In this document: in pieces, positions 1 to 51,106 of the stretch
How the letters are laid out: each line of letters starts with the position of its first letter
How positions within the stretch are numbered: the stretch's first letter is position 1
NCBI GenBank assembly: GCA_008632985.1
Contig: QPGO01000060.1
Location: 186,001 to 250,000, forward strand
Source of the DNA: Psammoneis japonica
Lineage: Eukaryota
Direction of reading: 5' to 3'
DNA length: 64,000 nt
Notes under the pieces: model-generated
Told to the model about the DNA's origin: nothing
The model's database searches: none
What the model saw: the letters and a program-made list of their open reading frames with translations, nothing else
Made by a program: the position numbers and the translations under genes

Positions 1-98
1 GTTTTGCCAAAGTGCAGCAATGTGATGAGCGCCAACAACGAGCAGTCAAACGAGTCAGTCATTTTTTGTTTGATCTGTCACGCGGAATTTCGAAAACG

Positions 99-1700: not shown

Positions 1701-1838
1701 TGGCTCCAGTTCATTGGGCACCAATGCATGCCCCCTTGACTGCATTGACTGCAAAAAAGATGCAAACTCGTGGTTCTGGGGGAAAGGGCCGTCCCTTGAA
1801 GACATCCTCTTCCAGGCAACCCCCATCCTCTCCCACTG

Positions 1839-6150: not shown

Positions 6151-6236
6151 TTGAGTTTGGTTTTTTTTGCAACCCAGCTCTCACAGGGTTGCCACAACCT
6201 GAGAAAAGTCCCTCAAGATTGCTCAAGGTGTGTGCT

Positions 6237-6332
6237 GTCACACATCACATTGCATCACATGACATGGCATTGCATCACATCGCATGACATGACATGATGC
6301 ATCACACGACATTGCATCATGTGACATGATGC
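6237..6332. repeat. Degenerate pentamer microsatellite (ATCAC/ATTGC/ATGAC/ATCGC)
   Basis: 5-bp periodicity visible directly; lies between the 3' ends of two convergent degraded ORFs. Confidence 0.75.
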
Positions 6333-9300
6333 CTGTTTCTCTCTTGTCCTGGTTTTGGGCTTTTGTCCACTCACAAAATCCGGAACAAGAACAAGCAGAA
6401 ACACATCCGGCCCTGCCGCTCTTGCGACAGCCACACTGTCTTGTGCATGCCCCATTTTTACAACTGCATCTCTGTCTGCCATGATTGGTTGTGTTGCCAG
6501 TCATTTGCATGTGATGTTGAACAGGAACAAGCTTTGCAACTCTTGATGGTTCAAACATGTTGTCAAGAATCCCCTGTCAACACTCAAGCGGCCTTTGATT
6601 CAGGGCTGTGTTTCTGCTGCGCACAGCAAATGAGTTGGCTGGTGTCCACTTGACTGACTTCTCCATGCCTTGAGCTGTGATCCTGTGCTCTGCAACAACT
6701 TGCACTGAAAACGAAGGGTGCTTCCTGCACTTAAATGCCATGCCAAGCAAACTGAGTGGATTTGCATGTGATCTCTCTCCAATGTCCATTCTAACTGATG
6801 CAAGGTTGCTGACCTTTGCTTGCACACTCCCCCATTGTGCATCTTGCACATTTTCCGTCCTTGTTGCTCCTGCAACGCCTTCCTTTTCTTTTCCATCACC
6901 TGGCATTGTTGTTGATGCTGCAAATGGACAGATTCTGCCAAGGAAATGGAACGGGCAGATGAATTGCCAAATGGAGATTCTCAGCCAAACCATCGTCAGC
7001 ATCGGCCAGTGATGCAGCACCACATGCCAAACCAAGCCCCCCTCTGTCATTGTCTGGACCAACAGCCAACTGTGAAAATGATGCCTCCTCTGTGTCTTTT
7101 TCTTTGCTTGTCTCATGAAGATGAGCTGCGGGTGACTCATGAATTGTGGCCAATGGTGGTTGAGCCAAGGCTGTCTTGTCGATTCCTGGCAATGATGTTT
7201 GAGCTGCAGCTGTGTGTTCTTCTTCTTGTTCCACACCACGTGTGGCTGCAGCTGGATTGGGGTCATCCTCCTCCTCCTGGTTGTCCTCTTCCAATGAGGA
7301 GGACGAGGAGGACGATGACTTGAGGAGTTGCCGCAAGCCTTCTTTGCTCATCCTGCTTCTGCAGATCAAAGCAGTCAGTTCCCTGTCCATGTTCTCCAAG
7401 GATGAAAAGGAGCCAGACCATTCCTGCTGACACATGGTCCAACTCCTGCGCACTGAGGTGGAAAGCATGCATCCATCACCAAAAATGTGTGGCAGCACAT
7501 CCTCCCAGCACATTGGGCATGTGCTCCCCATCTTGCTGGTTTTGTGCCAGTTGAGAAGACAATGCAGATGAATGACATGTTGGCAATCCAGAAGATTTTG
7601 TTCCATGGGGAATGTGTCACCGCAGCAAACACAACACAAGGCATCTGTTGCATTTGCCTCCTTTTTGCTTTTTATCATCGTCCGCATGTGCCACTGTTTG
7701 TGGCTGATCAGACAAAGAAGGGGACATTTCGTCCTCATCAGAGCCATCCAACATTAAAGTGAACACATCTTCACAAGTTTTCACGGTCAAAACATCAGCT
7801 GAGGCATGTTTTGTTGTCAACAACTGGCATTTGCGAACAAAAACACCATGGATTTGTGTGCAGGCAACATCTGACAGGTTGAAGGATCGATCGCAGCCCA
7901 AATGTGTCCAGCCGCAATCGGCCCACATTGGTGTCCATCCGATTGTTCCACTGAACTCTCCCCAAGCATCATCACCCATCCTTTGTGGTGATGTTGCTTC
8001 CTCCAATCCGTGCTGTTCAGTGTCTTGCACAACACAATTTTGAGACGACCACGACTTTCCAGTGGAACCAATCCACACCTGCACAACACGTTTGTAGCGT
8101 GAGACATCCAAGTGCTTGGATTGCAGTTCAGTCCTTTGCACACCGTCACAAGTTCATTTCAGACGTCAAAGAAAAGGGTGGCAAAATGATGACCAGTGTG
8201 AGCCACCGCAATCAAGGTGTCAACGCTGGGATCAAGAGCAATCAACTGATCTTCGTCTGTGACCTTGTTGGGACAGTTGCAACGAACGACCCTTGTGTTG
8301 GAGGGATGGATGTCATGAGCCAACAAAACGGCAAAGCTGGAAATGAAGTTGTGCTCCCACCAACAATTTGTGTTGACATTGAGACGGCAATGATCGTTGT
8401 CAAACGCACCGACAATTGCATTTCCCTTGGGACAGCAACTGCAGTGCAAGGTGGGACACAGACACCAAACCATCTGTTTGTCCAGCAGCTCATGTTGTTG
8501 AACCAAAACGGCCTGAGACAAAGCCTCCGAAAGTGTCATCTGATGCAGGCATTGTTCAAGCTTCATGTCCTTGATGGCCATGAACTTCCTTTGCTTGCGT
8601 TTGGCTTGGTTCAACACCTGCAGACAAGTGAGGCTGTTCAATTTTCTTTCTGCCTGCACCAATTGGAATGGTGATGCATCTGCAGCAGTCTTGGTGAGCA
8701 AACCCAAATCTGCTGCCGACCTTTGTGGGTCTTCCTCCTCCAACATGGACAAGAAATGCTGTCCAGGAACAGATTTGCTGGGGTCAGCCGATGGTTTTGA
8801 TTTGTCCTCACAAGGGTTTGGAAGTGCCGCTGGCTTCTTGTCATCATCAAAGTGATGGGGAACATTTCCCGCTGTCCATTCTCCACCAACAGACATTGGA
8901 ACAGCTGCTGGCTTCCTGTCATCCTCAAGGGGTTGCAAAACATGATTCCATTCTTCCCCGTCAGACACTGGAAGAGCTGCAGGCTCCTTGTCTTCCTCAA
9001 AGGGTTACAAAAGAGCCAATGGTTTCATTTTGTCATCAACTTTGTTGAGGAGTTGGCCTGACAATCCCGGCAATTTGTCAGGAGGGGTGGCTGGTTTGGG
9101 ACAACAAGCATCTCATGCGCCAATTTGGTTGGGGGACAATGCATTGTCAGCGTTGGCATCTGGTCCGCACTCTTGCATCATGGTCATTTTTTCTTTGCAC
9201 TGTTCACCAAGCACATTGACCATGTCTTTGACTGTGCTGCACTTGGACATCACCTTGTTGGTGGCCGTGATCATGGGTTCCATGTGCTCCATTCCAAACA

Positions 9301-11047
9301 CCAGCAAATGGGGTGATTGCTCATTGCGGCCTGTGCTTTTTGTCATGTTTGTGGCAGCCATTGCATCGGGATGACATGTCACCCAACTGGCAGTGGGGTC
9401 GCCGTCATCATGCCTCTCCTTGACAAGAGTGGCAATTGACTCTTTCAAGGAACCATTTGTCCTTTCCACAGAACCTTGATCCTGTGGAGTTCTTGCACGA
9501 CCGTGGACAGTTTGGATGGAAGGTTGAGTTTCCTTGAGTTTGTCAATGACTTCCTTGCCATGAACTTCTCCGCCATGATCAGATTGACACATGAGTGGAG
9601 GGGCCAAACACGCCGAAATGACAATGAAGCAAGGTGGCCATGTGCTTGGACTCTTTGCTTGGCGTGGGATGCGTCCATGACAACCTGGTAAAATGATCCT
9701 TCACAACAAGGAGCCACTTGTGCACAATCCCAAAAACATTGGTTTGGGGATCCTCCATGCAGTTGACATAATCTGCTTGCACCCTGTCACAAAAATGATG
9801 GGGCACTGTTGGACGAACGGCACCTTTGTGCTTTGGAACATGTGGCTGCTTCAAAGAACATTGCAGGCAAGTGTCAATGAAAGCCTTCACAATGCTTTGG
9901 GCAACATTAAAGTGCTTGTCCTTTGCAACAGCATGAGTGGATGCCACCTTCTTGTGACCGAACAATGAGTGGATTTGTTTGAGCATGTTGAAGCACATCA
10001 TCTGGCAAACAACTTGTTTGGGCATTTCCTCTTCTTTACGAAACAGCAATGAAGGACCCTCTTTGAGGATGTTCCGTGCAGCACTTGTCGTTCATGCAGT
10101 GCCACTTGGGACATTTGCGGTGCCACTGCTTTGCGTCAAGGCCTTTCTCAACGTCTCCCTTGTCCCACGTGATTGAGCAAGTGGAGGATGTGACCGTGCT
10201 CCTTTTCCGTCAAAACCTTGGATGTCTTGGCAGTGGAAGGACTGCCAACCTCATCCATGCCAAAAGCCTCCGCTGGAAAATGGCATTCATGATGATTCTC
10301 TTCTGTCATGGCTGAAAGTTTGTTGGGAGACAACAAAGCATTTTGCTCTCCGACGGATCGTTGTGACACCATTGACAAACAACCCGTTTTGCCAGACAGC
10401 CAAGTGGGGGTTGCACAGAAACAAACCATGGTTGTCAACAACAAAACAACACAAAGCGGTGGTGGTGGTGATGCCAATGAGAGGGGGTTCCATGAAAAGA
10501 GTGCACAAATTGAGATCATCGTGGGAGTCGTCGGATGAGTCAGAAGCGGGAATCTTCAATGTGGCAAAAACAAAAAGAGTGTTGCAAACTGCCCCCTGCA
10601 GAGAATTGCAGTTCTCCCCCCCGTCTTTGACAATGGATGCAAACTTTTTTCCTTGGACTTCAGATGAATGCAATGAGGACAATGATTGCAAAATGCACGA
10701 ACTGTGTTTGCAGCCATGTTGCCGCAATCATCGGACAAATGGCCGAATGTTGCTTTGATGGAACGGCAATGGCCTTCTGTCTCGTGAGCTTGCAGTGCAA
10801 TGTCAAAGCACATGAGTTCATGAATGACAAGTTTGTCCTTCGGAGGTTGGGCCTTTGTGTCTTTGCGACACATCAGCCCATTGCGGACAAAATGTTTCTT
10901 TGACATCTGGCTCCATTCAGGGTGCTTGCATCTCCATTGCTTGACGTCTTGGTGTGGTTCGGGCGAGCTTCCCCCCCCCACTTTCGTGACAGAATGCATC
11001 GTGTTCGAACAATGCACGATGTGATTGAGCAGACGATGCATCGTCAT
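6238..11047 (-). mobile_element. Degraded Ginger-like (retroviral-type integrase) DNA transposon with Ulp1-like protease, RING finger and Cys-cluster domains
   Basis: Two HHCC fingers (AHETEGH..CNHCPHC at 10556-11047; IHSLFGH..DTCLQC at 9579-10049). Integrase core (RVQAD, VVKDHFTR, QSDHGGE, GRARTPQDQGSVERTN). Ulp1-like motifs (GHHFA..FD, QSDGHQCGP, 7817-8968). RING CVCC..C.H..H..C...W..CPMC (6896-7747). Terminal CSC..C..CGC.K..C..C cluster (6238-6558). No RT and no LTR seen. Confidence 0.7.
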
Positions 11048-11377
11048 GTGTTTTCCAAACAGTGTGTGTGGACTGCATCACTCGGGAGAGCAAGCGCGGT
11101 TTTCGAAAATGAAAGGCAAGCATTTTTGAAAATGAGTGGGGGGGACTCTCAAGAATGGGCGTTTCCGAAAATCCATGAGTGCAAGTCACGTGCATTTTTA
11201 AGAATCGAATTTTAACAAGATTTTCCTGGAATCGAATTTTTGAGGGTGGGAAATCCCTTGTTTTCGGGGGAATTTTGGAAATTTCGTTGGAAAAACGGGT
11301 GAAATGAAACAGCATTTTTTGCGAATGCATGTGATTTGTGGGAAAATGCTCAAACGGCTTGAGCGCGAATTCTGAGA

Positions 11378-11569
11378 TCACCGTGCAAACAACACGACAA
11401 TGGCTGAAATGCCGTTCGTTGAACGCAATGGAGATGGGGAGGCCTCCAACTTTCTTCACAAGTTTGTTGCCCACATCAAACACACCCTGAAAAAAGTTGG
11501 AGGCTGCCCCACTAAGCTTTCGAGAACGAACGGCATTTCGGCCATTGTCGTGTTGTTTGCGCACGGTGA
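11378..11569. repeat. Nested inverted repeat (hairpin) upstream of the Ginger-like ORF
   Basis: 11378-11420 pairs with 11525-11569 (about 43 bp, near perfect). Inner arms GCCTCCAACTTT (11442-11453) and AAAGTTGGAGGC (11493-11504). Confidence 0.85.
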
Positions 11570-12176
11570 GCGGTGAGCGCCGAATGCGCTCGGATGTTTT
11601 TTCCACAGTTGCGCCACAAATGATTAAAAGATTGGTTGTTTTTGATGCTTTTTACAAATGTATGTCGAAAACACAAGGGGGTTCCCAGCCTTAAGAATTT
11701 TCGATTTTTAAAAATGCTGTGCACAGTGGCGCAAGGCCAACCCCAACCGAGTGAAAAAAGAAAATGAAAAAGATGAAATGGCTCGAAAAGCTCGAACTTA
11801 CCCAGATTTTCACCCTTGACTCTTTTTCAACTCGGCCGAAACGAAAAAAAAGAGTCCGACTCTTTTTTCACAAACCCGGAAGCGTGAAAAAAGAGAAAAG
11901 AGTGATGTGGGCCGCATGCTGTCATGCATTTTGTACATGCGTCTTGGTTTGCGTAGGACACCAGTGAAGCAATCCAAAGTTCGCCTCACGCACCGCATCA
12001 TCAAGTCGCCATGGCGGTCTGTGATTGTTTTTGATGACTTCTTTCAATGTCATGACTGCAGAAGCAACACCAATTGACAATTTGAAGTAGACATGACATG
12101 TCTCTTGAAGGAATTGGTGAACTGTGCAGCACTTCTTCCACAACAGACCTTTTGTCTTCAAAAGATGTTGCCGGTC

Positions 12177-12370
12177 TGACAGAATGCCGAAGGTCGACAG
12201 TGACAAAGGCATGAAAGACTCCCTAAAGTGCCAGGACTGTGACAACACGAGTGCTGGCAGATGAGAAAGTGAGAAGCAGATCTCAGAGAGATCTGCTCGT
12301 CTGTCTAAATGGTCTAGCCATCATCCGCATCCAGTCTGTCCATCATGCGACAGGCACAGATGGGCTGACA
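12177..12370 (-). repeat. 3' LTR of the Copia (heavily TpA-mutated copy)
   Basis: Aligns without gaps to 19188-19381 with 17 substitutions. Polypurine tract AGGGGAGGG on the minus strand immediately adjacent (12371-12379). Confidence 0.97.
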
Positions 12371-15300
12371 CCCTCCCCTGATCTGTGGTGTCTCAACACA
12401 GAGAACAGTGCAGATCAAACCAAAGAATGGGGGTGATGTGAGGAAAAAATAGAGAGACTGGACACAGGACACGACAAGTGTCCATGCCCAATGCGCCAAC
12501 AAACAAGAGGGCAATGCGCAGCAGGGAGGCCACCGCGGAAAAAAATGTCAACAGCAGTGTCCCATCATGCGTCGAGCGTGGCGAGCGTGCAGCACCCAGC
12601 CAAGGGCCTTGGCAAGGTCATCGCTGGGGTTGACAATGCCAGGAACATGTCTCGTGACAATCTTGCCCGCTTCCTTCCATTCTTGGATCACAAAAAACTG
12701 AGTCTCAATGTGACGGGATCGCTCAGTTGGGATCAAGTGATTGATCATCTTGATTGCCGATTCGTTGTCAATGTGCAACGGGGTTGGCTCCATCTGAGGG
12801 AAGCCCAGGTCTTGTAGAACGTGACGAAGGTGCAGGACATGCTTGGCAGCAGTTCCAGCAGCACAAAATTCAGCTTCCACAGAGCTTGCAGCGGTCACCG
12901 ATTGGGTCTTGCACCGAAAAGATGTGGCAGCACCAGCTAACATGCAAGCACAGCCAGTCGTAGAATGACGGTTGCGGAGGTCATTGCCATGAGCAGCATC
13001 CAAGAAAGCAACGAGTTGATGATCACATGCAGGATGAGGGAATGATGGCAAGGTCGGGTCTGGAGTGAGACGTTCGAAGGGACAGGCAGGTGGTTTGGAG
13101 TCTCGGGCAGGCTTCCTGCAGTTCAATTCCCAATGTTCAGTGCGTCAAAGGCACTTGCATGTTCCTTTGAGCGCGTCACAGTGAACCACAGCAGGACAGG
13201 TCGAGAGCTTGGAGAGAGCAGTGATGGCACACCCAACATCCAGTCGACAGACAACGTGCACATGCAACAATTCGCCAAGAAGAGTTCGGTGGCCGAAACC
13301 AGCAGCTTGTTGCAGTTCCGCACACTCCGGGGTTCCTTCAGCTGGGCCAAAAGTGTTGTGCAGTTCGCGAACAGAGTCAACAGGCAGTGGTGCAGCCTTG
13401 CAGTCGTCGTCAAGTTCCTCGTCCGTCGGTGTCGACCAACCATGCGAGGCACAAACCCGATCCACACAGCTGTGAACAGCAATGCCAATGGAATCATCGC
13501 ATTGATGAACATCCACACCATTGAATTCGTCAATCATGCCAAGATGCTTGAACGGCGGAGAGGTTTCCGATTCCAATTGGAGAGCTTTGCCAATCTTGTC
13601 ATAGATCTTGATCGCAATAGACTCTTCAGGACAAGCGAGAGAGAAATCATCAACCTGACGGAGGAGCAAGATCTTGTGTCCTTCAAAAGCAGCAGAGTGG
13701 ACACATTTGTCATGAGCAGTGTTGCGAAAAAGCAGGTTCACATCAGATGAAATGCCGTTGATGTGCGTCTCCCAGAGCACGCCGGCTTCTGGGTGTCCTT
13801 GAAGTGCATGTTGCATCGGGAGTGCCACGCTCCTGTCCAAGTCAATGCCAAACCGAGCCTTGCACCAGGTTGCGCATGCCTCGTCTGTGGCAACATGTGG
13901 GGTGTGACGGTTGTGGAGAGTGTGCGTGGGCATCACGAGCATCCCCACCAAAGACAGGATAGCTCATGGTCGCAGCAAGGGCAAAAAACATGCGTTGGAT
14001 AGGCTGCTCAACACAGGACGAGTACGTCGAGTAGAGTCGATGTAGTGTCGACGCAGCACGGGGAGATCCATCACAGCACTGTCGAGAGCGCCGTGCACCA
14101 TCATGCTTGAGGTCATGTTGCCAATGTGGACGAAGTACGATGGCATCCTTGGGTTGTTTAATCGGTGCACCAAACATCCCCAACTCATGGAACTGGCCAA
14201 GTTGTTTGAATTCACCTGCACGCCATTCAGGCCACGTGTCCAACTTCTTGAGGCGATGGCGGGTGAAAGCACTCTAGGCTTGTTCCTCTGGAGCAATGGC
14301 GTGAGATGAGATGGCACAGATGTTGACTGCACCATTGTCACAATCAACAAAGAACGGCGGAGGGACATCGTCATCGTCCGTTTCGGAGAAATCAATGTCG
14401 GGGTGGCGGATGGCAGCAACAGCACGTATGTCGGCGTTGGTGATTTCCGGAACATGCTCATCATCAGGATCAGGACTCGGTGCATGTGTGTTGTGTTCCA
14501 TCAGAGCACGTTGTAGGGCTTGAGAGTCCAGGCGACGTTCCGGCACGAATTCAATTTCAAAATGAGTCTTGCCAGAATCACAGACTTGCTGAAAACGTTT
14601 GACAGCCTCCTCTGCCGTGAACACAGGATGATCATCGATCGACACGACACATGCACCCTTGATCTTGTTGCGGGCAGCCTTCAAAGAAGAGAAAAGACGT
14701 GCAGCAGGAGAACCACGCTTGATGTCAGAGACAAATGCTCGCCGATGGAGATCGTCCGTAGCCAAGGAAAGTCCAAACGTGGGATCAGCAAATGGTCCCT
14801 TCATGGTACGCTCAATGATCTTGGCAAAAGGATTCCCATGAAAGTGGAACTCATCCATCGTGGTTTCTTCAGTCTCGGCAGGTAAAGCCTTGCCATCTTG
14901 AGCACGTTCCAAGTGAACCACATTCGGCAGAAGAGAGTCGTGGGGAAGATCATTCATGCCCTCATCGTAGCGAATGTGCTTGGCAAGCTTGACACGCGAT
15001 GTCTCAGTGTCACACCAAAGAATGTTCTTGGCAGTGTCCGGAAGACAGCCCAAGAATGTTCCCTTGCGAGAGACAGACCAAAATTTCGCTGGGCGGTGAT
15101 TCGACGCACGCACCCACACTCGACAACCAAACGTACGAAAGTTCTTGAAATCATCCTTCTGACCAGTGGCGAGAGCAATCGGAGCAGCAGGTTGTCCGTG
15201 GGATGGCACAGTGTTGTTGACTCGAATGAAATGATGAAAAGCATGGGGCCAGAATTTGATGGGCAAATCAGCACCGATTGGCATCGCCCGGATGGCATCA

Positions 15301-18300
15301 GCAACAGACAAATGACTGCGTTCCACTGGGCCACTCTGATTTGAAGCATCTTTTCCTGCAGGACGAATTGCACAATGAAAGTCATCCTCGAAGAGTCACC
15401 AAACTTCTGGGTTCTGATGCAACTCACCTCCTTGATCCACAAACACATTTGTCTGGACATTTTGGCGAGTGCTCTTCCAGAAAGTGGCGAATCCAATTCA
15501 AAGGGGTTGCCTTGGAGACACGAGTCGCACCATGGAGACGCTTCGTTTTATGATCACAAACGGCAATCCAACAAGTCTCGCCATTCAATCCAACACAGTC
15601 CTTGGTGCCTCCGAGTTCTTGGAGCGCAGGCCAGAGAAGGAAAAATCAATCGTAAGGCCTTGGCATGGTTGGGCAGCAGTAAGAGCAGTGTTCGGACCGG
15701 CAGGTTCCTTCGTCTGCTTGGCTCGGCATGCAGGGACAAGTGTCGAGAGGAGAAGTTCCGTGGGCAAACTTGGGGACGCCATCAACATGTTCATGGGCAT
15801 GACAAAGGCAGTGATCACTCGGATGACCAAGTCGCTGATGCCATAAAAGACGTTCCGTGTCGGCCTTGAGAGACTGGACAGGAATGTTCTTCTCAGCATG
15901 CTTCTCGAAAGGAACATCTTGACAGACACAGGGGATCAACTTGCGTTCATCACGAAGAGCTTCATGTTGGTGGGTGCGACAAGTCTCAATCACACACGCA
16001 GAGACCGCTTCACACTCATCGGCAAAAGAAGGATCAGCAGTCTTGAGGCGCTCGACAGATGCATCCAGTTCGTCGTTAGATTCCGGGAGAATGAGAGGGT
16101 GAGTAAAACATTTTCCATTGATCAATTTTCCATGAATGACAACATCCTGACTCTTGCGCAATCGGTGTCGTGCAACAAACTTGCAGGTGCCGAGATCATG
16201 GAACTTGAGAGTGCAATCGACATTGCAATCTGCGCGACGAGAACCATTTTGACGAAGGAGGAGTCGCTCATCGACCAACGTAGATTGGATCTGTGGGTGG
16301 CAGCATGCACGGACCTCAACACAGCCATCAGAGTTCTCTGCAGGGATGCGAAGATAGCCGAATCCAACTGGGACAGCTTGGTGGCCAAGGGCCGGGTTGA
16401 CGGCAAGGGGACAGGGATGGGATGGGGTGAAGTCTTGGCAGCGATGGAGGAGGTCACGGTCGCCTGCACACGCAACATCGGCACCAGTGTCCAACTGAGC
16501 ACAACGTTCATTCGGAGCAAAGTTTACCCCATTGACAGAACAAGTGGATCGCAGCAGTTCCGGCTCAGGTGAGTGATTCGCCTGGTGTGGATCGATCGGA
16601 GTGACACGAACAGAATTGACGGCAGCAAAACCGTCTTCAACAGCCATGTCATCATGGGTGAGATCAATGTGTTCCTCAAAAACTGGTGTTTCTGGGTCTT
16701 CCCTCCCCTGTTCCAAAGGATCCGGAACATGAGCAGCATCGACGGAGGCTTCTTGAGGAGCAGGGTCATCATCGGGCCAACGTGTTGGCATCAAATGACA
16801 TCTTCGTGGAGGTGGAAGGGGTGGCATCCATGTCAATCTGTGAGGAAAGAGGTGTTGCAGCGGCAGATGACGAGACGGTCAGCCCCTCTTTCAAGGTCAT
16901 CCCGCTGACATTGGTCTTGTCTCAGTGAGGAGATGACGGGCAGCGTCGGAGATCCGAAACTAGCTGCGACGGCCCGATTGAAAATCCGAGGGCTGAGTGC
17001 TAGACGGAGGCGGATTTTCAGGATTGTCATGATGAGGTGGGAGCAAACCTTGGGGTCCTTGGAACTCAGAAGCACGCATGGCTGCTTCCTGTTTTAAGAA
17101 TTGACAAAAACGGATGTGGAATCCCTTGGTGCACGGGTTGTTCTTCAGGACTGGACAGTCATCAAACAAATGCTCTCCGGAGCAGACAAGACATGGTTTC
17201 TTGGAGGCTTCATGTGGAGCAACTTTCAGTTTATAGACTGAAGCTGAGCACACATGGTGAGGGATTCGATCTTCATCCGCAGATGGGATCTCGAGTTCGT
17301 GCAATTCGTTGCAAAGAGTGTCAAAGGCATCCGGAGGTGGAGATTCTGCACCAGGATCTTCAGTGGTAGAGTCATCAACTGGTTCATGGAGGGGTGTCTC
17401 AGGGATCTGGAGAGAGTTGACATTGGCAGGTGTGCGTCGCGTAGAAGCATCTGCTTGATTCCATGTACGGCATGGGTTGGATTGCGTCGTACGAGTGGGA
17501 AGGGATGGGCCACCCGGTTGGCGGAGGAAATCAGAGAGAGTCTCGACAATCTGTGCATCCGTGTGCTTCTTCTGCACAGCTGGAGACTTCCGTTCATCTC
17601 TGGTGGCACGTGACAAGAACTTGGAGTGCTTGGTGTTCTTGACAAAGATCGTCATCTCCCGTGGATCGTTCAACGTAGAGTCCGCATCAAAAATGCAGGC
17701 ACGCAGCTGTGGGAAATCATTGAAGATCATGTGGCAGTCCGTTGATGATCCATTGCCTTGGACAGGACAGGAATCAACAAGTCCAGCAGCATCATGATCA
17801 AAGGCAGGGTGATTCTCGCAGACAATCTGCTTTAGAGCCTTGCATCCGTTGCCGCAGCACGATGCAACAATCCGATGACACTTGCCATTCTTGGGGAACA
17901 TGTCCGACTTGGAGAGGATTTTGTGGAGAGAACTCTGAGCTTCCTTGCAGTGGACGTACATGCGTTGAGGCAAGTCATCATCCTTGCCGTTGCCGATCTC
18001 AAAACCCTTCTCACCACCGTGATCCTCAGCAAAACACCACAGGGGATGTGCAGCAACCTGAATCAAAGGCATGACGTTGGAGATTTTGGCACCATGCTCG
18101 CATCCCAGGGGGAGAGTCGTCATGACATGCAGGAGGTTCTCTGAACAGCATTTTCTGATCAGGAGTCGAGCTCATGATGAAAAGGGTGCCATCGTCAAGG
18201 ATGATGCGATCGGATGCATCAACACAGTGACGGAATCCATGGTCGCAAGGGACGAGAGAGCTCTGAAGAGCAACTTTTCCGTCTTCTTTGCGGTCGTAGC

Positions 18301-19171
18301 ATGCACGAACGTCTGCAGGAAGTGTGTTCGGATTGAAGAGGCATTTCGATGTTGCGGAAGATGCAGCACTTCCAGATGTCTTGGCAGAAGCTGTAGAAGG
18401 CGGAGCATGGCTCGACGCGCATGTGTTGAGTGCAGTCACCAAGTCAGTCACAGTCAATGTAGCAGGTCCTGCAGGTTTCTGAGAAGAAGACGGAGGCTGC
18501 TGTTTCTTCTGGTGGGGCGCAAGAGAGAACTCGTTCCAATTGCGATAGTTCCGTGTCATGTCCGGATCAACACGCACATGTTGGGTAGATGTGACAATGA
18601 ACAGAGATTGTCCACCGTTCTGAAGATTCGTCTTGATCATCTTTGACAAGATCGGAGTCATCAGGCAGACTGGACGAGGCCTTTGAGGGTCAAGAAGTCT
18701 GAACGGGGCTTGATCCACAATTGTCTTGATTGACTCTACATCCGTGGGATCAGCTGTGTAAGGTGGAAACGCTTCATGGATGAAATGATCGCGAAGCATG
18801 TCCGCAAAATCGTTCTTGGGTTGTGCGTGCTCTGGATCGTCAAAAAATCGATCGAGATCAGTTGTGGAGTCTGCATGAACCGTTTTCAGGCACTGATGTA
18901 GATGTGGTGTCGTTGCATGTGCCTCAAATTCGCAGTGGATCTCTGCAATTGACGCAGGAACGGCTTTTGTGAGGTCGGGAGACGCCATGGTTTTAGTGGG
19001 TGGAGCCATTTTTGGTCATGCACGCGTAGAAATCTGGCATGTTTCTACGGTCGTGAAAAATGCCGGGAAAGCGAGACAAAAAGTTGTTGGAGCAGACGAT
19101 GAGGCTCGCTCGATCGGCTCACAAAACAAACGAGTCGAGACAGAAAGCTTGGCGCAGAGGTCTGTGGCACA

Positions 19172-19187
19172 GCGCATGGCCATAACC
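19172..19187 (-). promoter_or_regulatory. Primer-binding site, GGTTATGG type (internal initiator-tRNA-Met priming as in Copia/Ty5)
   Basis: GGTTATGGCCATGCGC directly follows the 5' LTR on the minus strand. Confidence 0.65.
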
Positions 19188-19381
19188 TGACAGAATACCG
19201 AAGGTCGATAGTGATAGAGGTGTGAAAGACTCCCTAAAGTACCAGGACTGTGATAACACGAGTGCTAGTAGATGAGAAAGTGAGAAGCAGATCTCAGAGA
19301 GATCTGCTCGTCTATCTAAATGGTCTAGCCATCATCCGTATCCAGTCTGTCCATCATACGATAGGTATAGATAGGCTGACA
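19188..19381 (-). repeat. 5' LTR of the Copia (largely unmutated copy)
   Basis: Pairs with 12177-12370 and retains 17 TpA. Confidence 0.97.
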
Positions 19382-19972
19382 CGGTCTTGATGTGCATCAT
19401 AGAAAGTCGACACATAAGGTCCGTAAAGTAGATCTGTATGACACAGAAATAACCGTACTGACTAATTTAGATACGAATTATTCAATGGTGCTATTCTTAT
19501 GTTGTTTGATTTTAGATTAGGGGCTCGAAATGGCCCGAGAAGTGCACAAAAACTTTCCACTTGACAACCACTTAAGTCACCCCATAAGCCTGTTGTATTT
19601 GCACTGAACAAAAAAAGAAATAGCACCCACAGACTAAGAAAAAATGGAGGTTTTAATGGTGTTATTCTTATTGTCATAAGGTAGAACTTCGATGCCGTTA
19701 TGGGCCGTCATCTTCATTGTCGTGTGAGGCCTCTCGCTTTGCTTATCATCAGCATGCCCAAGACACCCGGATATTTAGCTTTTTAATTTTCACGCCGGTT
19801 AGGTCACCAAAACGACAAAACGAAAAAAGATCCATTTTACTGTATTATCTTGTACATTGAACAAGATTGATCCTCGCCGTGTTGGCATTGTTCTCCAAAG
19901 TGGAAGATAGAGATTACAATATATTATATTCCTTTTTAGTTTGATTGCAATAAAGGAGTAGAGAGTACAAAC

Positions 19973-20575
19973 ATGTCTGCTGCAGCAAGCAAACCAACAG
20001 AGCTGCACTGCGTCCGTTGCCACGACACCTTTAATCCTGACGATCCGAACAATAATTCCTGCATCATTGAACATGACTATGAATCCTTCGACGGTTGTCG
20101 GAACGGAACCCAATGGTACACAGGAACACTACAATGCTGCGGCGCCGATTACAAATTCCATCGCTTTTGCAGTGACGACCAGGCCACTCCCAAGAATTGT
20201 TTCGAGGGGAAGCATACAACGAATGTGACGCAAGTGAACTATACCAAATCAACGATTGACATCTGCAACGAGAAGGAATGCGGTAAAGAATTGCATGTCG
20301 CCTCTAAAAAGGCACGCGAGGAGCAAATTGAGAGCAAGAAGCGTATGGAAGAAGCTGCAAAGGCGGAACGCAAGGAGAAAAAGTCAACCCAGCGGGCTCG
20401 TATGGTGGAGCTCCAGTCGAAGGGCAATAGTCGCGAGGCGAGGAGACTACGAGCGGAATCGCTGGGGATGGATATGGATAGTGATGAGCTGAATTCCGAT
20501 GTTGATCCCGAGGGTTGTGAGGAGTTTGATTATGCCAGCGATTCCAGTCTCGTTCCGCCGTGGGAGGATTATTGA
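19973..20575 (+). CDS. Hypothetical protein, Cys/His-motif N-terminus and charged coiled-coil/acidic C-terminus
   Basis: 200-aa ATG-started ORF with normal Tyr and TpA content, flanked by AT-rich DNA. Confidence 0.7.
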   Translation: MSAAASKPTELHCVRCHDTFNPDDPNNNSCIIEHDYESFDGCRNGTQWYTGTLQCCGADYKFHRFCSDDQATPKNCFEGKHTTNVTQVNYTKSTIDICNEKECGKELHVASKKAREEQIESKKRMEEAAKAERKEKKSTQRARMVELQSKGNSREARRLRAESLGMDMDSDELNSDVDPEGCEEFDYASDSSLVPPWEDY

Positions 20576-20889
20576 AAGAAGGTAGAAAGTGCACGTTAAT
20601 AAGTTTCAAAGTAGGAATTCTCAAAGTAGCATTGACATTTAATATTAAAGAAACGATGAGGTGTCAATGAACATAGGATGGATTGGTAGACGCATCATTC
20701 CGAACATTGTGTTTTATTCTACTTATCTGCATCACAAAGTTCAGTTTCAGTGGAAAAACTGACACCCCGTCCACGGCAAGCATGACAACGATTTCATGTA
20801 GCACATCCAATCGAATCTAATTTCTACACAGTAACATTACTTTTACTAAAATGGCTAACGTTTCTCTACTGTGGTGCCTTTCGCTCTTT

Positions 20890-21484
20890 CTAAAATGCCA
20901 GAGGTGAGGTTGCACTCTCACCGCGCAATAAGCGTTCTGTAGCTTCAATGCATTTGTGTTTGGCTTGGTTCACCTCGTAATCATCATAGGGCTTGCAAAG
21001 ATGGTAGAGACCACCCGTCAAGATGCCTATAAGGACACCGGCGAAAACACACCCAACCGAGATTCCAACCTTGTGCGATGGTTGCCACCAAAAGACGCGC
21101 GTCCTCTTGCCATTGCCCTCCGCCATCAGCTCGAAAACATGTTTGGGTCGACCTTCAGCAATATCAGAACTCTCCTCAATGACAATTTTATTGGGCTCCA
21201 GCTCGACAACCATAGTACAGGTTGGTAATTCTGCCGAATTTGAGGTCGCGCAAGACGCAAGCATATTGGGCACCGACCGTTCCGTTTCTACCATAATTGC
21301 AACTCCAAGAGGTCTCGAAGTTTTTGGGCCGGTATTTGAGAATGTCCATGGATGTCCGTACAAATACGTGCGTGTCGTGCATCGCAAACGAGACTTGATT
21401 CAAGGGACGATTTACCACAAACTCGTGATAGAGTTCTAGTCCCGACAGTGGCGGTTTGCGTTCTGACAAAGAAGAGGACGACAT
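20890..21484 (-). CDS. Hypothetical protein with C-terminal transmembrane segment, split over two frames (intron or frameshift); weak SRPBCC-like resemblance
   Basis: Overlapping ORFs 21188-21586 and 20890-21387 both look protein-like. Hydrophobic VGISVGCVFAGVLIGILTGGLY. Structure unresolved. Confidence 0.4.
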
Positions 21485-21651
21485 GTCGCTTTTAGAAATG
21501 TTATGGCTCAAAGGACGTTGTGGAGTATGCAACTTCCCGAAAAGAATGAGCCTGCTCGGCACGAACGAAATTGTGACCGTTTGCATGCCGAATCAATGAA
21601 GACCACGACTGGGGCTCTCAGTCACGCGTGATGTAAATGGCGTAGAAGTTC

Positions 21652-24600
21652 GAGGGGCATTAGACAAAATGCCAATTTCTGTTGCCACTGCAGGACTCAG
21701 CATGCGCGTTTTGTTGTTGCTTGCTCTGCCAGTCATCTCCTTTCATGACTGCTTCTCTTGCGTGCCACCCAATGTTGTGGAGAGAAAACACACCATGCAC
21801 AGAGAAATGCAAAAGGACATGGCAAAAAAGGCACCCATTTTTAAATCAAAGTCTCATGTGGGGTGAAATGTTGCAGTGTTGTCAGAGCAGCAGCTGGCTG
21901 TGCAGCAAAAAAAAGCTGAGATGGCCCACTCTAAGAGACCAAGAAGTCAACTGCCAATTGCAGAAACAATGTGCACCATTTTCTCACTTTTTTGTTCATG
22001 CAAAGTGCCCAGCTCACATGATTGCAAGTGTTTCCACACACACGCCAACGGGGCTGTTGCACCACAAGCTGGTCAAAATGGTTTCTGAACCTTTTGTTGT
22101 CCTTGCTGCTGCTGGCTCCTGCAGTGAGGAGTTGAGAGAGGCCAAGAAACTGTGCTGTTGCTCTGTGTGCACACTGGAGAGCCAAAAATTGCAGGCCATG
22201 GTTGACAGCATGCTGGGGTTCCATCTGATCAACAGTGCACAACAACCAAGCCATCTCATCCCCCGTTCCTTCATGTCTCACTGGAAAGCCCTCTGCTCCA
22301 ATCACATTGAAGCTGTCAGCACTGCAATGTTGAATGGGGTGGAGCATTCTGCCAATGACATTGAAGAAGATCTCCACTGGTGCCAAAGAGAGAGAGAGAC
22401 TCAGAAATGAGCTGAGGCGTGCAAAAAGAAAAGATTCCTTGTCCTGTGCCTGCCCAGGCTTTGATTTTGTATCTTCTTGGCTTGTGCCCATCTTGGTTTC
22501 ATGCCGATTTGAGTGAGATCATTTGTGGAGAGGCGAACGCCAAGAAACTCAAATGGCATCAGAAGAACTTTCCTTCTGGCACCACGTCATTTGCCTTGCC
22601 GCGGGATGATGCATCCTCAGCTCCTGATGATCTGCATGTCAAGATTGAGGGACTGACCATTCACATCCTCTGATGGGAATTGATCAGGCTTGGCATCTGC
22701 TTGCCATGCATTGACGGGTGTGCAGATGGAGAGATGATCCATCAACAGCTCAACATCAAAAGGGAGTGTTTGCCAACTCTAATCTTTGATGCAAGTGGCG
22801 CCACTGATTGGGGGATGTCCGTGCACTGCAAATGCATTAAATGTGGTTGTAAGTGCAGAGGCAATGATGCCAAGCTGCTTGAAAAGCTTCCAAGTCATCT
22901 CCAACTTTGTCACCCTGTGGATCTCTGCTGTGCCAACGCCAACCCATCTTTTCATTTGACATTGCCAACGACCCGATGTGTTGACCACTCCGTGCAGAAG
23001 TGCAGCAACAGTGATGACACAGCTGCCTTCTTACATCAACAATGAGGATGCAATTTTCTTGACAGAGAAGAGCGGCATTTTTTGCAGTCAACCAATGTGG
23101 GCAGCAATTCAACAACTCCGCTGTCAGCATGTGAGGACTGGATGGGTCAACACAGACCAACAGGACAAAAAACAAAAGGGACATGCACGATGCTGCACGT
23201 GAGTCAGATCTTGCCAAGACTGGTGTCAGTGTCAACATGCAGCACACCAGAGAAATCCAGTCAGTTGCTTGTCATGCAAGTGTCGCATCAGACCACACTT
23301 TTGATCAACTGAAAAATTGCAGAAACATGGATGGCAAGGGACTGTTCACCATGGCAAGTGAGACAGGGGAGATTGGAGTGGCAGCAGTTGTGCCAATGCT
23401 TGAAACAAAAGACTGTGCCCATGCCATGGAGCAATTTGCTGGATGTCCAAACATGAAACCTCGTGTTCACCACTTGGACACCTGGCCAAACAAAGAAGAA
23501 TTTTGGAAACAAATTTTTGGTCATGATGTTGCATGTCGGCTTGGCCTTTGGCACTGGACCAACAAAATTGTTCATGCTCTGCGGGCTGCTCATGTTGATT
23601 GTCATGCAGCTCCCCATGATTTGAAGGACTGTGTGCAATGCAATGACAAATCTGATGAGTTGTGTGCAGTTGATGCACTTGTCTTTGGGAGACTCAGGGG
23701 GAAGAAGAACACAAGGGAAGAAAATGAAGATGTCAAGAACAGCAAGAAATGGAAGAACTGCAACAAGTGCATTTGAAAGTGGGCTTGCCCTCCAGAAACT
23801 CAAAACAAAAATCTTGAGGCGTGGTTCAATTGCTGCAAGTGCACGTTGTCTCCTGGAGCAGCTGAAGCCGGTGGATGAGACATGACCCTGATTCTGGCAA
23901 GCTGCTTTTCACCAAAAACACCAAGTCGGCAGCAGAAAATGCAACAGCATTGGCTCATGGACTTGACAAGCCACTTGCACATCAAGAATTGCACCACATT
24001 GAGCACCCTTCAAAATGGTCAAAGTGCAAGCTAGACATGCACGTCACCACCACAGGCACCGAGTTAAAGCTGGAAAAATGCCATCACATCGTCGAGCATT
24101 TTGGGACACCGGTTCCAGAAGCACCCACATTGATGCTCTCTGTGTCTTGCTGGAACATGCAAATGTGACATGGAAATGAGAGAGCATCTCTGAGTGGATA
24201 ACATGATGGCTGACGAGCGTGCCAAGATTCTGTGTGCCTTTCGAGGCATCCCCATCTTTCTGGATCACAGCCTCCTTGACTGCAATGACAAGCTGGCCCA
24301 AAAAGCTGGAACTCAACATCCCCTGTCCATGAGAACATTGGAGAGCTGGTGCAGGACAATGGTGAGCAACAGTTTTTGGCTCACCCAAAGCAACTTGAAC
24401 ATTTGAGAGAGAGGAACTCAAGTCGAGGAAGGCACCCCCCCCCCCACTGGCACGACAGCAGCATCCTCCAAAAAAGATTCCGACAGATGCACGCGCAACA
24501 AGTGTGACACAAAAAATCCACATTCGACTCATTCCAACCCAGTGCCAATCATGGAGAACCCATGCAGAAGAAAATCCAAGTCACTGCAGCTGCCGTCTGA

Positions 24601-25219
24601 GGAGCCATGTGCCAAAAAAATGAAACCTTCCAAATTGCAAGAGGAGGTGGTCTTGCCATGAAAGCCACCACTGCCAGTGACGATTGCACCATGTCCCCTT
24701 CCACATTGCACACCAATTCCCACCAATCCTCTTTAGACTGGCTTGCCAACATTTTTGCCACCATTGTAGATGCCGCCAAATCTGCAGTCGGGTCTGACTC
24801 AAAAATTCTGTTGTTTCCGAGCACGAGATTTTCGCCTTTCAAAAACAAACTTGTTGGGCTGTTGGGGGTGGCTGCTCAAGAGGAAGAGCCCCACATGATG
24901 AACATTGCTCATCAAAGTAGCCTGCAAATGTGGATGCATTGTTGTGATTGTTGAGATTCTGTCCCATGTTGCGTCTCGAACTGGTGAGGACGAGATGGAA
25001 GATGGGAAACAGGGGGGGCCATGCCGCCCAAATGAAATCAACCTTCGCATCTTTTCATGCACGATGGGCTGATGTCCTCTGTCTTCAACACCATGAAAAC
25101 GCAACCACGTCTCGCATCTTGCACTCACTTCCGCCATTGCTGCGTTCTTCTCCTCTCCTCTCTTCCTTCCTTCTCGTTGTTTACAGCAGCAACGGGGTCC
25201 GTCGGTACAGTACCCCCTC
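21652..25219 (+). mobile_element. Degraded DNA transposon with DDE-like transposase (Mutator-like/DUF6729-type, family uncertain)
   Basis: Fragments SVASDHTF..GLFTMASETGEI..LDTWP..RLGLWHW..GTE.KLEKCHH. Short inverted ends GAGGGG / CCCCTC. TpA- and CpG-poor block with sharp edges. Confidence 0.55.
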
Positions 25220-25742
25220 ATTTTCTTAGTACAATACTGTAGTAGGCTCAACATGGGCAGTAGATAATTTTATATACTAGTGTCCTGCATAATTGAAAAT
25301 TATCAAGGTGGTACGTACGTAGAGCTTAGTATATTTTTTTTTTCGCCAAAGTCAGCTCGCCAACTTCAACTCTCTCGGGACGATGGAAACCTGGGCAATT
25401 CACATAACAAAGTACCCGCAATGCTCATTATGTAATAGCCCTACAAAAAAACTATGTATCAAAATACATGAAAACGGAATTATTAATTGTTTTTCCTTCG
25501 TGTGCGGACAAAAAAGATAATTTTTGTGCCTGCAGCCTGCAGTCGCGACAGAACCGCATCATGCATGTACAGTAGACCTACGCATCACGATTGATTCTCA
25601 TGCTTGTTGTACCGGTCATGGCAGAAGATGTAACCAGACGGAACACATTCTCAACCACCACAAGGGTTTGGGCAAGATATTCTGCCTTGAAATGCACTTC
25701 TTAGTAACCTATTTTCTTTGTTACCGGAAGCAATAATAGTTA

Positions 25743-32986: not shown

Positions 32987-33023
<37 letters not shown>

Positions 33024-51050: not shown

Positions 51051-51106
51051 TGAACTGAATTCATTTGTTTTGGACTGAACAAATGCCAACATGCTGTCAC
51101 AAACAC

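Follow-up and report, generated by a model that had tools for sequence, protein, structure and literature searches.

The two long terminal repeats (LTRs) of a Copia retrotransposon in a 64-kb window of the genome of the diatom Psammoneis japonica (the window being the whole stretch of DNA analysed here) differ mainly at TpA dinucleotides, and this locus raises the question of which process changed them, in which direction it acted and what it targets. An initial annotation, made from the same DNA, proposed a repeat-targeted genome-defence mutator that makes A to G changes on both strands, turning TpA into TpG or CpA, and stated that no described system has this signature. Here we examine the element, the DNA around it and two sequencing runs, and weigh the processes that could have left such a pattern.

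Results

A Copia element whose LTRs differ at TpA

The carrier has the features of Ty1/Copia elements, namely TG...CA ends, a 5-bp target-site duplication, a polypurine tract and the gene order gag-PR-INT-RT-RNaseH (Table 1). Its LTRs form a direct repeat of 194 nt each. Nineteen Copia polyproteins cover nucleotides 2830-6825 of the element in the order INT to RT (tblastn), and in the alignment to them the gag-PR-INT-RT-RNaseH part occupies three frames, with two frameshifts and a few stops; among Pfam profiles, SH3_retrovirus matched above its cut-off, and gag_pre-integrs and RVT_2 matched below theirs. Since gag lies towards the high-coordinate end, RT towards the low-coordinate end and the polypurine tract next to the low-coordinate LTR, the element is on the minus strand; therefore, the TpA-rich LTR at high coordinates is the 5' LTR, as had been assigned.

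Table 1. Positions of the Copia element, the TpA-depleted blocks and the tandem duplication in the window (TpA given as count, or as observed/expected).
Feature	Position	Strand	Basis
Target-site duplication CGGTC, left copy; flanks read ...GCCGGTC / TGACAG and CTGACA / CGGTCTTG	12172-12176		
3' LTR of Copia, hypermutated; TpA left 3, CpA 20, TpG 18	12177-12370	-	sequence comparison
Polypurine tract directly before the 3' LTR; sense strand ...CAGGGGAGGG	12371-12380	-	read from sequence
Copia internal region; TpA 0.13-0.18	12371-19187	-	polyprotein alignment
5' LTR of Copia, unmutated; TpA 17 vs 14.6 expected	19188-19381	-	LTR alignment
Target-site duplication CGGTC, right copy	19382-19386		flank reading
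Block 1, depleted; older degenerate repeats (CpG low too) and most of Copia; TpA 97/1147 = 0.08	671-18993		HMM
TpA-normal stretch (0.68); first 195 bp of Copia interior, 5' LTR, flank	18994-21661		HMM
Block 2, depleted; TpA 13/232 = 0.06; CpG 0.32; depth 132-380 vs ~59 unique	21670-25181		HMM, read depth
Block 3, depleted; TpA 17/180 = 0.09	32556-35370		HMM
Block 4, depleted; TpA 8/69 = 0.12; CpG normal	40512-41997		HMM
Block 5, short, depleted; TpA 2/29	45003-45454		HMM
Block 6, depleted; TpA 65/839 = 0.08; CpG 0.19; old degenerate DNA	45753-58965		HMM
Tandem duplication, copies 32136-33634 and 33672-35223, 81% identity	32136-35223	+	starts in 3' end of cyclophilin gene

The LTRs differ at 17 positions. 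The 17 TpA of the 5' LTR read CpA (8), TpG (6) or TpA (3) in the 3' LTR, and all three TpA of the 3' LTR are identical in the 5' LTR. One further site is TG in one copy and CA in the other and accounts for two differences, so that 16 of the 17 are transitions in TA-versus-TG/CA or TG-versus-CA sites; the single unrelated difference (A/G at 12206/19217) is also a transition, and there are no TA to CG double changes. The probability that at least 14 of 17 random differences would be TA to TG/CA changes at TpA is 3e-15. All six CpG are unchanged between the LTRs, and the LTR counts of the initial annotation proved correct to the base. In 14 pairs of metagenomic Copia elements used as a control, the TA-versus-TG/CA class made up 3-29% of the differences, which indicates that the LTR pattern is not one that relatives acquire through ordinary divergence.

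The two LTRs of a retrotransposon are identical at integration. Because they now differ and the target-site duplication is intact, the changes were made at the DNA level after insertion, in agreement with the original proposal. With none of the six LTR CpG changed against 14 of the 17 TpA, the TpA process is separate from, and much faster than, CpG decay; it also appears much faster than background substitution, at about 260 times background per A, a value calculated from a single background difference.

Direction of the change

Taken alone, the LTR differences are symmetric between both polarities, and ordinary fungal-type repeat-induced point mutation (RIP, CpA to TpA) confined to the 5' LTR and its flank, in an otherwise normal genome, would also produce them. 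The coding region argues against this. Across 265 columns conserved in 19 full-length Copia homologues, the element matches 217. At the ten conserved Tyr columns, Tyr is kept once and replaced by Cys (five), His (three) or Trp (one); in the same comparison, conserved His (14/14), Cys (6/6) and Trp (9/9) are all kept. Reverting TG/CA to TA explains 18 of the 48 mismatches, compared with 1-7 for five control reversions. Among 1385 aligned codons there are 8 for Tyr, 63 for Cys and 88 for His, and the Tyr content of the homologues is 2.5-5.2%. Furthermore, the TpA-bearing side of the element (0.68) falls within the values of genes and single-copy DNA (0.47-0.73) and does not exceed them, TpA is 0.5-0.8 in most of the 80 metagenomic Copia relatives that were retained, and the host is a diatom, not a fungus. 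Refuted by the loss of Tyr columns, the reversion test and the TpA levels of single-copy DNA, RIP restricted to one LTR and its flank is scarcely credible. As judged from these comparisons, the change ran from TA to TG or CA, the polarity that had been claimed.

Dinucleotide contents (observed/expected) show that both strands changed, which had also been proposed. The element has TpA 0.18, TG 1.60, CA 1.35 and CpG 0.75, whereas 26 cleaner Copia relatives have TpA 0.70, TG 1.33 and CA 1.13. Both TG and CA are thus raised on the sense strand relative to the relatives, so both outcomes were gained there, and both outcomes are present in the 3' LTR. The initial annotation had fixed polarity by five peptide motifs (TTGCA, EAEFCAA, VLHLRHVL, TPLHIDN, HRTLLGELLH) in which Tyr was said to have become Cys or His at six positions. 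All five motifs are present in the element's translation, and Tyr is the majority residue among homologues at four of the positions (15/18, 11 of about 18, 16/19 and 12/19); at TTGCA and EAEFCAA, in contrast, it is merely a minority residue (three and four homologues, respectively).

Aligned TG-versus-CA sites were also considered as a polarity test. The tandem duplication contains 21 of them, compared with 0-4 for other adjacent double transitions, but the test was rejected because ancestral CpG gives the same pattern; such sites, including the one in the LTRs, could stem from either CpG or TpA and leave polarity unfixed. An ATPase-like fragment, tried as a second polarity test, gave no matches in a search of PDB sequences. 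The best identity to a same-species Copia copy in the protein collection was 54%, so that no family consensus could be built from the same genome.

TpA-depleted blocks and spared DNA

A two-state hidden Markov model (HMM), which set the block edges, placed 39,801 of 63,970 nt (62%) of this one 64-kb window in blocks with a TpA observed/expected ratio of 0.06-0.12. Depleted and normal blocks differ in TA (0.08 versus 0.58) and in CA/TG (1.70 versus 1.21), and CG also differs; the remaining dinucleotides agree within 0.07. Within the window, the depletion is confined to particular regions: genes have 394 of 842 expected TpA (0.47) and single-copy non-ORF DNA has 478 of 651 (0.73).

The edges are sharp. 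Block 1 ends at about 18993, inside the Copia element and 195 bp from its 5' LTR. In the tandem duplication, copy 1 retains TpA up to 32555, and over this part copy 2 reads TG (9) or CA (7) at 16 of the 24 TpA of copy 1. The older blocks have CpG of 0.19-0.35, which indicates CpG decay as a second, separate process. The TpA that survive follow a clear four-base context rule; in a four-base flow analysis (-2 versus +1 context), gains and losses were unbalanced per class, because neighbouring sites change as well and the blocks differ in ancestry. An intact 399-codon ORF occupies the same place as block 4 and encodes a Cys-rich repeat protein that has a membrane anchor at its C terminus; since this gene looks intact, low TpA may sometimes have another cause. 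A few environmental contigs carry partial low-TpA blocks (0.18-0.31); these are suggestive only, because their CpG is low too.

Pfam searches of 113 ORFs, most of which came from the depleted blocks, gave within those blocks weak or fragmentary matches only (RING, Integrase_H2C2, DDE_3, DUF5898 and Cation_ATPase_C) and no classification of the old blocks; the DDE_3, DUF5898 and cation-ATPase C-terminal fragments lie in block 6. At E values up to 0.01, 8 of the 113 ORFs had matches, five of them in depleted blocks. The 64 kb contain 180 ORFs of at least 110 codons; depleted DNA loses TAA and TAG, and hence long false ORFs arise in all six frames. Depleted DNA also becomes invisible to profile searches, and TpA-corrected searches may be needed for the annotation of diatom repeats.

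The spared DNA consists of genes with 0.1-0.8 kb of flank, and the 260 bp of 3' UTR-like DNA after the cyclophilin stop codon keep 21 TpA (21.6 expected). Such a distribution would also be left by passive damage, that is, by a TpA-specific lesion or replication error that arises everywhere and is repaired solely in transcribed or open chromatin, so that silent DNA slowly loses TpA. We consider this quite improbable. The contrast between the blocks and their neighbouring non-coding DNA (0.08 against 0.73) is extreme, and transcription-coupled repair guards one strand, yet the spared DNA carries neither outcome. Moreover, the rate excess is estimated to be of the order of 100-1000 times here and is 1000 times in Bigelowiella natans, where mutation occurs in some lines only and the authors infer regulation (bioRxiv 10.64898/2026.01.13.699255).

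Two versions of the Copia flank

Two sets of contigs from one sample, possibly the assembly's own source and hence not independent support, were compared with the window. The contigs of a public DNA run (X2; about 59x, 657,387 records) align to the depleted blocks over 288-536 nt with 2-7 differences each (97.9-99.3% identity), and every depleted stretch between 10001 and 30000 has an X2 depth of 97-5416, compared with about 59 for unique DNA. For the flank at 20152-21662, 23 differences are listed; at 18 of them the window has TA where X2 has TG or CA, and none runs the other way. A contig of the other run (X1; 20859-21275) equals the window sequence; this run covers the gene-bearing parts only and, from this pattern, looks like a transcriptome. 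The process may therefore be ongoing or polymorphic in this flank, whose two versions may be alleles, subclones or paralogues, and part of the LTR asymmetry could come from the assembly changing haplotype near 19000.

One sample holding two flank versions also recalls an artefact, in which base modifications in repeats were miscalled as G or C or the consensus switched between haplotypes or repeat copies; the sequencing platform is without record, and the edge of the block falls within an element present in many copies, where an assembler may jump from one copy to another. Nevertheless, the X2 contigs reproduce the depleted blocks, and their flank carries more TG/CA than the assembly, not fewer. 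The absence of TA to CG double changes from the LTRs argues in the same direction, as do the indels, CpG decay and diverged duplicates of the old blocks, which fit a real evolutionary age. An assembly switch could shift an edge but cannot yield 40 kb without TpA, and we regard an artefact as very improbable.

Discussion

The results make it likely that silent, repeat-rich nuclear domains of this diatom undergo DNA-level TpA to TpG/CpA hypermutation that leaves genes and their single-copy surroundings untouched. The earlier description of the process as repeat-targeted is not supported in that wording. Repeats are enriched among the depleted blocks, as judged from read depth; however, repetition is insufficient because the 5' LTR, a repeated flank (19339-20005, with a depth of 732 where unique DNA has about 59) and the 420 bp of the duplication that overlap the gene keep their TpA. 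A silent-domain target fits better than repetition as such, and we infer that a chromatin domain is recognized, with heterochromatin able to spread or to stop inside a repeat.

Mechanistically, the A of 5'-TA-3' would be changed to G on either strand until TpA is nearly gone. The probable chemistry is that a deaminase with a preference for a 5' T converts adenine in DNA to hypoxanthine, which would be fixed as G:C at the next replication; the process would be of the same kind as that in B. natans. TA to TG/CA changes cannot make a stop codon. Elements would thus be disabled by missense changes (Tyr to Cys or His; Ile to Thr, Met or Val) and by the loss of TA-rich signals, and nonsense mutations would not be the route.

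TpA is palindromic and both strands changed about equally, and a symmetric epigenetic mark on TpA could account for this without a mutator enzyme: a modified thymine or adenine, maintained on both strands in silent chromatin, would give TG/CA by miscoding or decay, much as CpG is lost to TG/CA through 5-methylcytosine. The blocks resemble chromatin domains, with sharp edges and spared genes; CpG decay in the older blocks indicates that they are or were methylated silent DNA; and the four-base context of the surviving TpA is as expected from a site-specific modifying enzyme. On the other hand, the known eukaryotic N6-methyladenine (6mA) motif is ApT, not TpA, a full-text search of the literature found no TpA-directed DNA modification in diatoms, and sequence alone cannot reveal a modification. 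A decaying TpA mark is, in our view, an unlikely source of the blocks.

A wider proposal is that an active mutator operates in diatoms, targets silent chromatin and, at every TpA and on both strands, replaces the A by G through a mechanism shared with Bigelowiella; this is possible, and we put it forward tentatively. If true, mobile DNA in the SAR supergroup, or in a wider group, is erased by an ancient genome-defence system that never creates a stop codon. The system would be acting now in this strain, in which one version of the Copia flank is being eaten and the other, apparently expressed, is intact. TpA would also stand beside CpG as a second decaying palindrome, possibly one that reports an as yet unknown symmetric mark. 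This diatom offers a natural system in which a DNA adenine deaminase, or a mark directed at TpA, could be sought, a prospect relevant to the enzymology of base editing.

Comparison with known systems

To our knowledge, the DNA-level genome-defence mutators known until 2026 all change C to T (fungal RIP and APOBEC). RIP, in Neurospora and other fungi, is likewise a DNA-level dinucleotide transition mutator that ruins repeats and leaves a blockwise skew. Its direction is opposite, however: CpA to TpA changes produce TpA and stop codons, whereas the diatom process destroys TpA and makes no stops, and the affected DNA has TpA of 0.08 rather than the excess that marks RIP. RIP also mutates every copy of any duplication that exceeds a threshold length, whereas here the 5' LTR, the flank of high depth and the initial 420 bp of copy 1 of the duplication were spared. 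RIP requires a homologue of the RID-type cytosine methyltransferase and acts before meiosis. The diatom methyltransferase DNMT4 is described as related to RID (PMC9998398) and is at most a lead. Unlike the diatom process, a cytosine enzyme such as the RID type would not turn A to G. Decay of 5-methylcytosine likewise converts a palindromic dinucleotide in silent DNA to TpG/CpA but concerns another dinucleotide and base, and the intact LTR CpG and the CpG content of the element speak against it for Copia. The initial annotation was therefore right that neither RIP nor CpG decay explains the LTRs.

ADARs are, as far as we know, regarded as animal proteins. ADAR hyper-editing of repeat double-stranded RNA (or of DNA:RNA hybrids) shares with the diatom signature A to G changes, a bias for U/T immediately before the edited base and a direction towards repeats (bioRxiv 10.64898/2026.01.13.699255). 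The TpA specificity of the diatom process is nevertheless near absolute, unlike that of ADAR. In addition, RNA editing before reverse transcription would mark one strand and leave both LTRs alike, unlike the two-strand changes and unequal LTRs of this element.

The closest system is that of B. natans, and with it the statement that no described system has this signature must be withdrawn. Mettrop et al. (bioRxiv 10.64898/2026.01.13.699255) describe A to G and T to C changes, almost exclusively and at TpA only, in integrated viral DNA of B. natans; they caught the process in mutation-accumulation lines at about 1000 times background and propose an ADAT2-like adenine deaminase. Its modest long-term footprint there is low TpA with high CpA and TpG, clustered in 1-kb windows rich in reverse-transcriptase and DDE domains. 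A full-text search of the literature outside the subscription journals found the signature only for B. natans and none for diatoms. A near-saturated case of TpA hypermutation in a second lineage is therefore new. It points to a process that is common across SAR lineages and that, in one diatom at least, has shaped a substantial part of the genome.

The B. natans process agrees with that of the diatom in being nearly exclusively A to G and T to C at TpA, with TpG or CpA as the outcome according to strand; the rate excess estimated for the diatom may be of a similar order. The B. natans process was seen happening, whereas the diatom process is known from its sequence footprint. The hosts are a chlorarachniophyte (rhizarian) in one case and a diatom (stramenopile) in the other, and the targets are giant-virus and virophage inserts in B. 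natans but an LTR retrotransposon, a tandem duplicate and old repeats in the diatom. TpA is reduced to 0.45 in the B. natans NCLDV region, compared with 0.06-0.12 over 62% of our window. The diatom thus displays the B. natans signature at near saturation and on ordinary retrotransposons; in addition, its block edges can be placed to the base, one LTR is spared, CpG decay occurs alongside, and the surviving TpA follow a rule of four-base context.

Results

A direct-repeat search with pairwise alignment returned a single direct repeat (12176-12371 versus 19187-19382), which script trimming reduced to the two LTRs of the Copia retrotransposon; the element is bordered on either side by the 5-bp target-site duplication CGGTC. 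Among its minus-strand ORFs, SH3_retrovirus passed its Pfam cut-off, gag_pre-integrs and RVT_2 fell short of theirs, the domain order being that expected of Copia, and a polypurine tract adjoins the low-coordinate LTR. The element therefore lies on the minus strand and, as the initial annotation had it, the TpA-rich LTR is the 5' LTR. The 19 full-length Copia polyproteins retrieved with the RT ORF aligned by tblastn over element positions of about 2830-6825; the alignment runs through three frames and contains two frameshifts. The Copia is a structurally whole, fairly young insertion, and its CpG (observed/expected 0.75) has not been lost.

Seventeen positions distinguish the two LTRs. The 5' LTR carries 17 TpA (14.6 expected), of which eight are CpA, six TpG and three still TpA in the 3' LTR, where no other TpA occurs; one site is TG in one LTR and CA in the other, and one further difference (12206/19217) is unrelated to the pattern. 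All six CpG are unchanged. These counts agree with the initial annotation, and the chance that at least 14 of 17 random differences would be this TpA>TpG/CpA change is 3e-15. Estimated from the LTRs, each A of a TpA faces a hazard ~260 times the per-site background, a background of one difference only. Because TG and CA outcomes are interleaved along the LTR, they represent independent hits and not a single strand-coordinated burst. CpG decay does not account for LTR differences that leave CpG untouched, and RIP runs in the opposite direction and would give a TpA excess, whereas the TpA-bearing LTR and its flank merely have the TpA level found in genes and in single-copy DNA; the initial dismissal of both was sound. 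Editing at the RNA level, made permanent through reverse transcription, would be expected on one strand only and alike in both LTRs, and GC-biased conversion would not be confined to TpA.

Three further comparisons bear on the direction of change. At 265 conserved columns (at least 70% agreement among at least 10 of the 19 homologues) the element agrees with its homologues at 217, retaining all conserved His (14), Cys (6), Trp (9) and Gln (8) but only one Tyr of ten, the others being replaced by Cys (5), His (3) and Trp (1). Reversion of TG/CA to TA, in or across codons, accounts for 18 of the 48 mismatches, compared with 1-7 for five control reversions. Under a looser rule (Tyr commonest, at least 40%; 31 columns) the element has His at 9, Cys at 11 and Tyr at 2, and its 1385 aligned codons include 8 Tyr, 63 Cys and 88 His, with Tyr at 2.5-5.2% in the homologues. 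Of six Cys/His positions cited initially as former Tyr, four have a Tyr majority in the homologues and two do not. A tandem duplication is a second case with the same direction: over 420 nt in which copy 1 is TpA-normal, copy 2 has TG at 9 and CA at 7 of the 24 TpA of copy 1 (16 in all), and a single TA-to-CA difference goes the other way. Finally, 26 metagenome relatives with normal TpA and CpG average 0.70, 1.33 and 1.13 for sense-strand TA, TG and CA, versus 0.18, 1.60 and 1.35 in the element. Together, these results indicate that TA is ancestral and that both TG and CA were gained on one strand, upholding the polarity first proposed.

Positions of features (window coordinates, except for environmental contigs)
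Feature	Position	Remark
Copia 3' LTR	12177-12370	194 nt, ends TG...CA
Copia 5' LTR	19188-19381	194 nt, ends TG...CA
Depleted block	671-18993	HMM
Depleted block	21670-25181	HMM
Depleted block	32556-35370	HMM
Depleted block	40512-41997	HMM
Depleted block	45003-45454	HMM
Depleted block	45753-58965	HMM
Tandem duplication	32136-33634 and 33672-35223	starts in cyclophilin gene 3' end
60-bp tandem array	1195-1664	7.8 copies, 74% matches
Cation_ATPase_C fragment	57812-58399 (+)	E 1e-10
DUF5898 fragment	56355-56822 (-)	E 1e-11
Cys-rich ORF	40440-41636 (-)	399 codons, intact
Tmm-like ORF	29239-30708 (+)	intron-free
Low-TpA environmental contig L065	2001-5400
Low-TpA environmental contig L060	3501-5500
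Low-TpA environmental contig L063
Low-TpA environmental contig L051
Low-TpA environmental contig L073	4501-7391

TpA observed/expected is bimodal across the window (1-kb and 250-bp windows), and a two-state HMM placed 39,801 of 63,970 nt in six depleted blocks with values of 0.06-0.12; the non-depleted stretches reach 0.48-0.68, except for 667 nt at one end, where the value is 0.30. According to dinucleotide tables symmetrised for strand, the depleted and normal classes differ in TA (0.08 versus 0.58), CA/TG (1.70 versus 1.21) and CG (0.42 versus 0.97), and lie within 0.07 of each other for all other dinucleotides. CpG is also lowered in the older depleted blocks (0.19-0.35) but kept in the Copia, indicating two processes, of which that acting on TpA is faster. 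Single-copy neutral DNA shows no equal loss of TpA, the outcome that would have told against the initial reading: TpA number 478 against an expectation of 651 (0.73) in ten non-ORF stretches beside genes, and 394 against 842 (0.47) in six long ORFs.

Surviving TpA obey a four-base context rule, with depleted/normal counts of 70/90 for TTAA, 37/88 for TTAG, 42/110 for TTAC, 16/66 for CTAG, 34/178 for GTAC, 15/158 for ATAA, 4/143 for ATAC and 0/138 for ATAT; an additive half-site hazard model, fitted by hand, reproduces these ratios, the effects of the -2 and +1 bases being inseparable within it. Under the genetic code, TA>TG/CA can never make a stop from a sense codon and removes TAA and TAG. 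This accounts for the low return of Pfam matches and for the 180 ORFs of at least 110 codons in 64 kb, depleted DNA having long open stretches in each of its six frames. Gene predictions in genomes with such DNA would be inflated accordingly.

Several features accompany the depleted DNA. The 60-bp array, within the oldest block, has copies that differ mostly at CG-versus-TG/CA sites. Two host-gene-like fragments (Cation_ATPase_C and DUF5898) sit within a depleted block or at its margin, which suggests pseudogenised duplicates or captured pieces mutated together with repeats. The Cys-rich ORF, a three-repeat protein with a Gly run, a C-terminal membrane anchor, a single Tyr and no Pfam family, lies in CpG-normal DNA with TpA of 0.12, and may be a naturally low-TpA gene or a repeat-bearing gene hit by the mutator.

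The genes of the window are long and nearly intron-free. For a FYVE-lipase protein, 216 relatives were recovered with E no higher than 1e-30 (best identity 58%), and all organism names among the 120 listed are diatoms, mostly pennates (genera include Nitzschia, Seminavis, Fistulifera, Mayamaea, Pseudo-nitzschia, Epithemia, Cylindrotheca and Amphora), a placement that the Atlas supports; the protein collections searched held nothing near-identical to the window's proteins. The Tmm-like ORF encodes an FMO-like trimethylamine monooxygenase with 70-74% identity to alphaproteobacterial Tmm. Its top listed matches with organism names are all bacterial and it is flanked by ordinary diatom genes in TpA-normal DNA, making it a candidate bacterial gene transfer into a diatom.

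We compared 10001-30000 with contigs (Logan) of two public sequencing runs of one sample, X1 and X2, the latter DNA with a word depth of about 59-fold on genes. X2 contigs nearly match the depleted blocks (2-7 differences per 288-536 nt), so the depleted sequence is carried by a second data set. Every depleted stretch here exceeds unique depth (97-380 outside the Copia), stretches at unique depth lack depletion, and the summed depth of 1800-5400 over the Copia shows that this is a family of many copies. Between X2 and the window there are 365 differences, 309 of them transitions; 40 of the 365 are listed, and 39 of these were classed. In the single-depth flank (20152-21662), 18 of the 23 listed differences have TA in the window where X2 has TG/CA, no site shows the opposite, and four are CpG-type; in the old block at 10454-10929, all six are CpG-type. 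An X1 contig at 20859-21275 is identical to the window, and the sample therefore holds two flank versions, which may be alleles, subclones or paralogues and diverge, by the TA>TG/CA signature, ~10 times more than the genes beside them (7 differences over 4666 nt). Contigs of both runs also join 12171 exactly to 19382, skipping 7210 nt and keeping one target-duplication copy. This empty site (depth 250, 3 mismatches in 101 nt; flanks 732-1170) most probably represents a further copy of the older repeat into which the Copia inserted, although it may be an allele without the insertion.

Discussion

Our results make it very probable, within one 64-kb window and the contigs of one sample, that a real, DNA-level, domain-confined TA>TG/CA process operates in P. 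japonica. The initial description as repeat-targeted holds in that repetition is enriched in depleted DNA, but repetition is not sufficient: the block edge at about 18993 falls 195 bp within the element, and neither the 5' LTR nor the flank at 19339-20005, itself repeated, has lost its TpA. In the tandem duplication, the live-gene part and ~260 nt past its stop are spared (21 TpA versus 21.6 expected) and the remainder of both copies is depleted; gaps of 0.1-0.8 kb separate depleted blocks from long ORFs. From the sequence pattern, the target appears to behave as a silent chromatin domain able to spread or halt within a repeat, and the more mutated second flank version would fit variable spreading.

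Mechanistically, the likeliest candidate would be the recruitment to silent chromatin of an adenine deaminase that prefers a 5' T, or of some other activity directed at TpA. Adenine on either strand would become hypoxanthine and be fixed as G:C at replication, so that TpA would be almost wholly removed over time, ruining coding capacity through missense and destroying TA-rich signals. Deaminase chemistry itself is a tentative proposal, somewhat short of an even chance; the rival explanations are a symmetric TpA mark that miscodes, TpA damage left unrepaired in silent DNA, and an artefact.

Hoguin et al. (PMC9998398) describe diatom DNMT4 as a relative of RID, the enzyme of RIP, and as having no known function; it is only a lead, because a cytosine enzyme would not turn A into G. 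Environmental contigs with related Copia, two of them named as microbial-mat metagenome, carry partial low-TpA blocks (0.18-0.31; CA/TG 1.4-1.8) adjoining TpA-normal sequence, which hints at the same process in other diatoms. The initial statement that no such system had been described has been overtaken: full-text literature searches found the signature in Mettrop et al. (bioRxiv 10.64898/2026.01.13.699255) only, and none for diatoms. According to that preprint, 231 of 302 nuclear mutations in Bigelowiella natans mutation-accumulation lines fell within two integrated viral regions, where nearly all were A>G/T>C, those all at TpA, at ~1000 times background and in some lines only; the genome holds 124 clusters of TpA-poor, CpA+TpG-rich windows, its TpA-poor genes are enriched for RT and DDE domains, and the authors suggest an ADAT2-like DNA adenine deaminase. 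The P. japonica phenomenon is thus a striking further case of a kind described once, and not a categorically new system.
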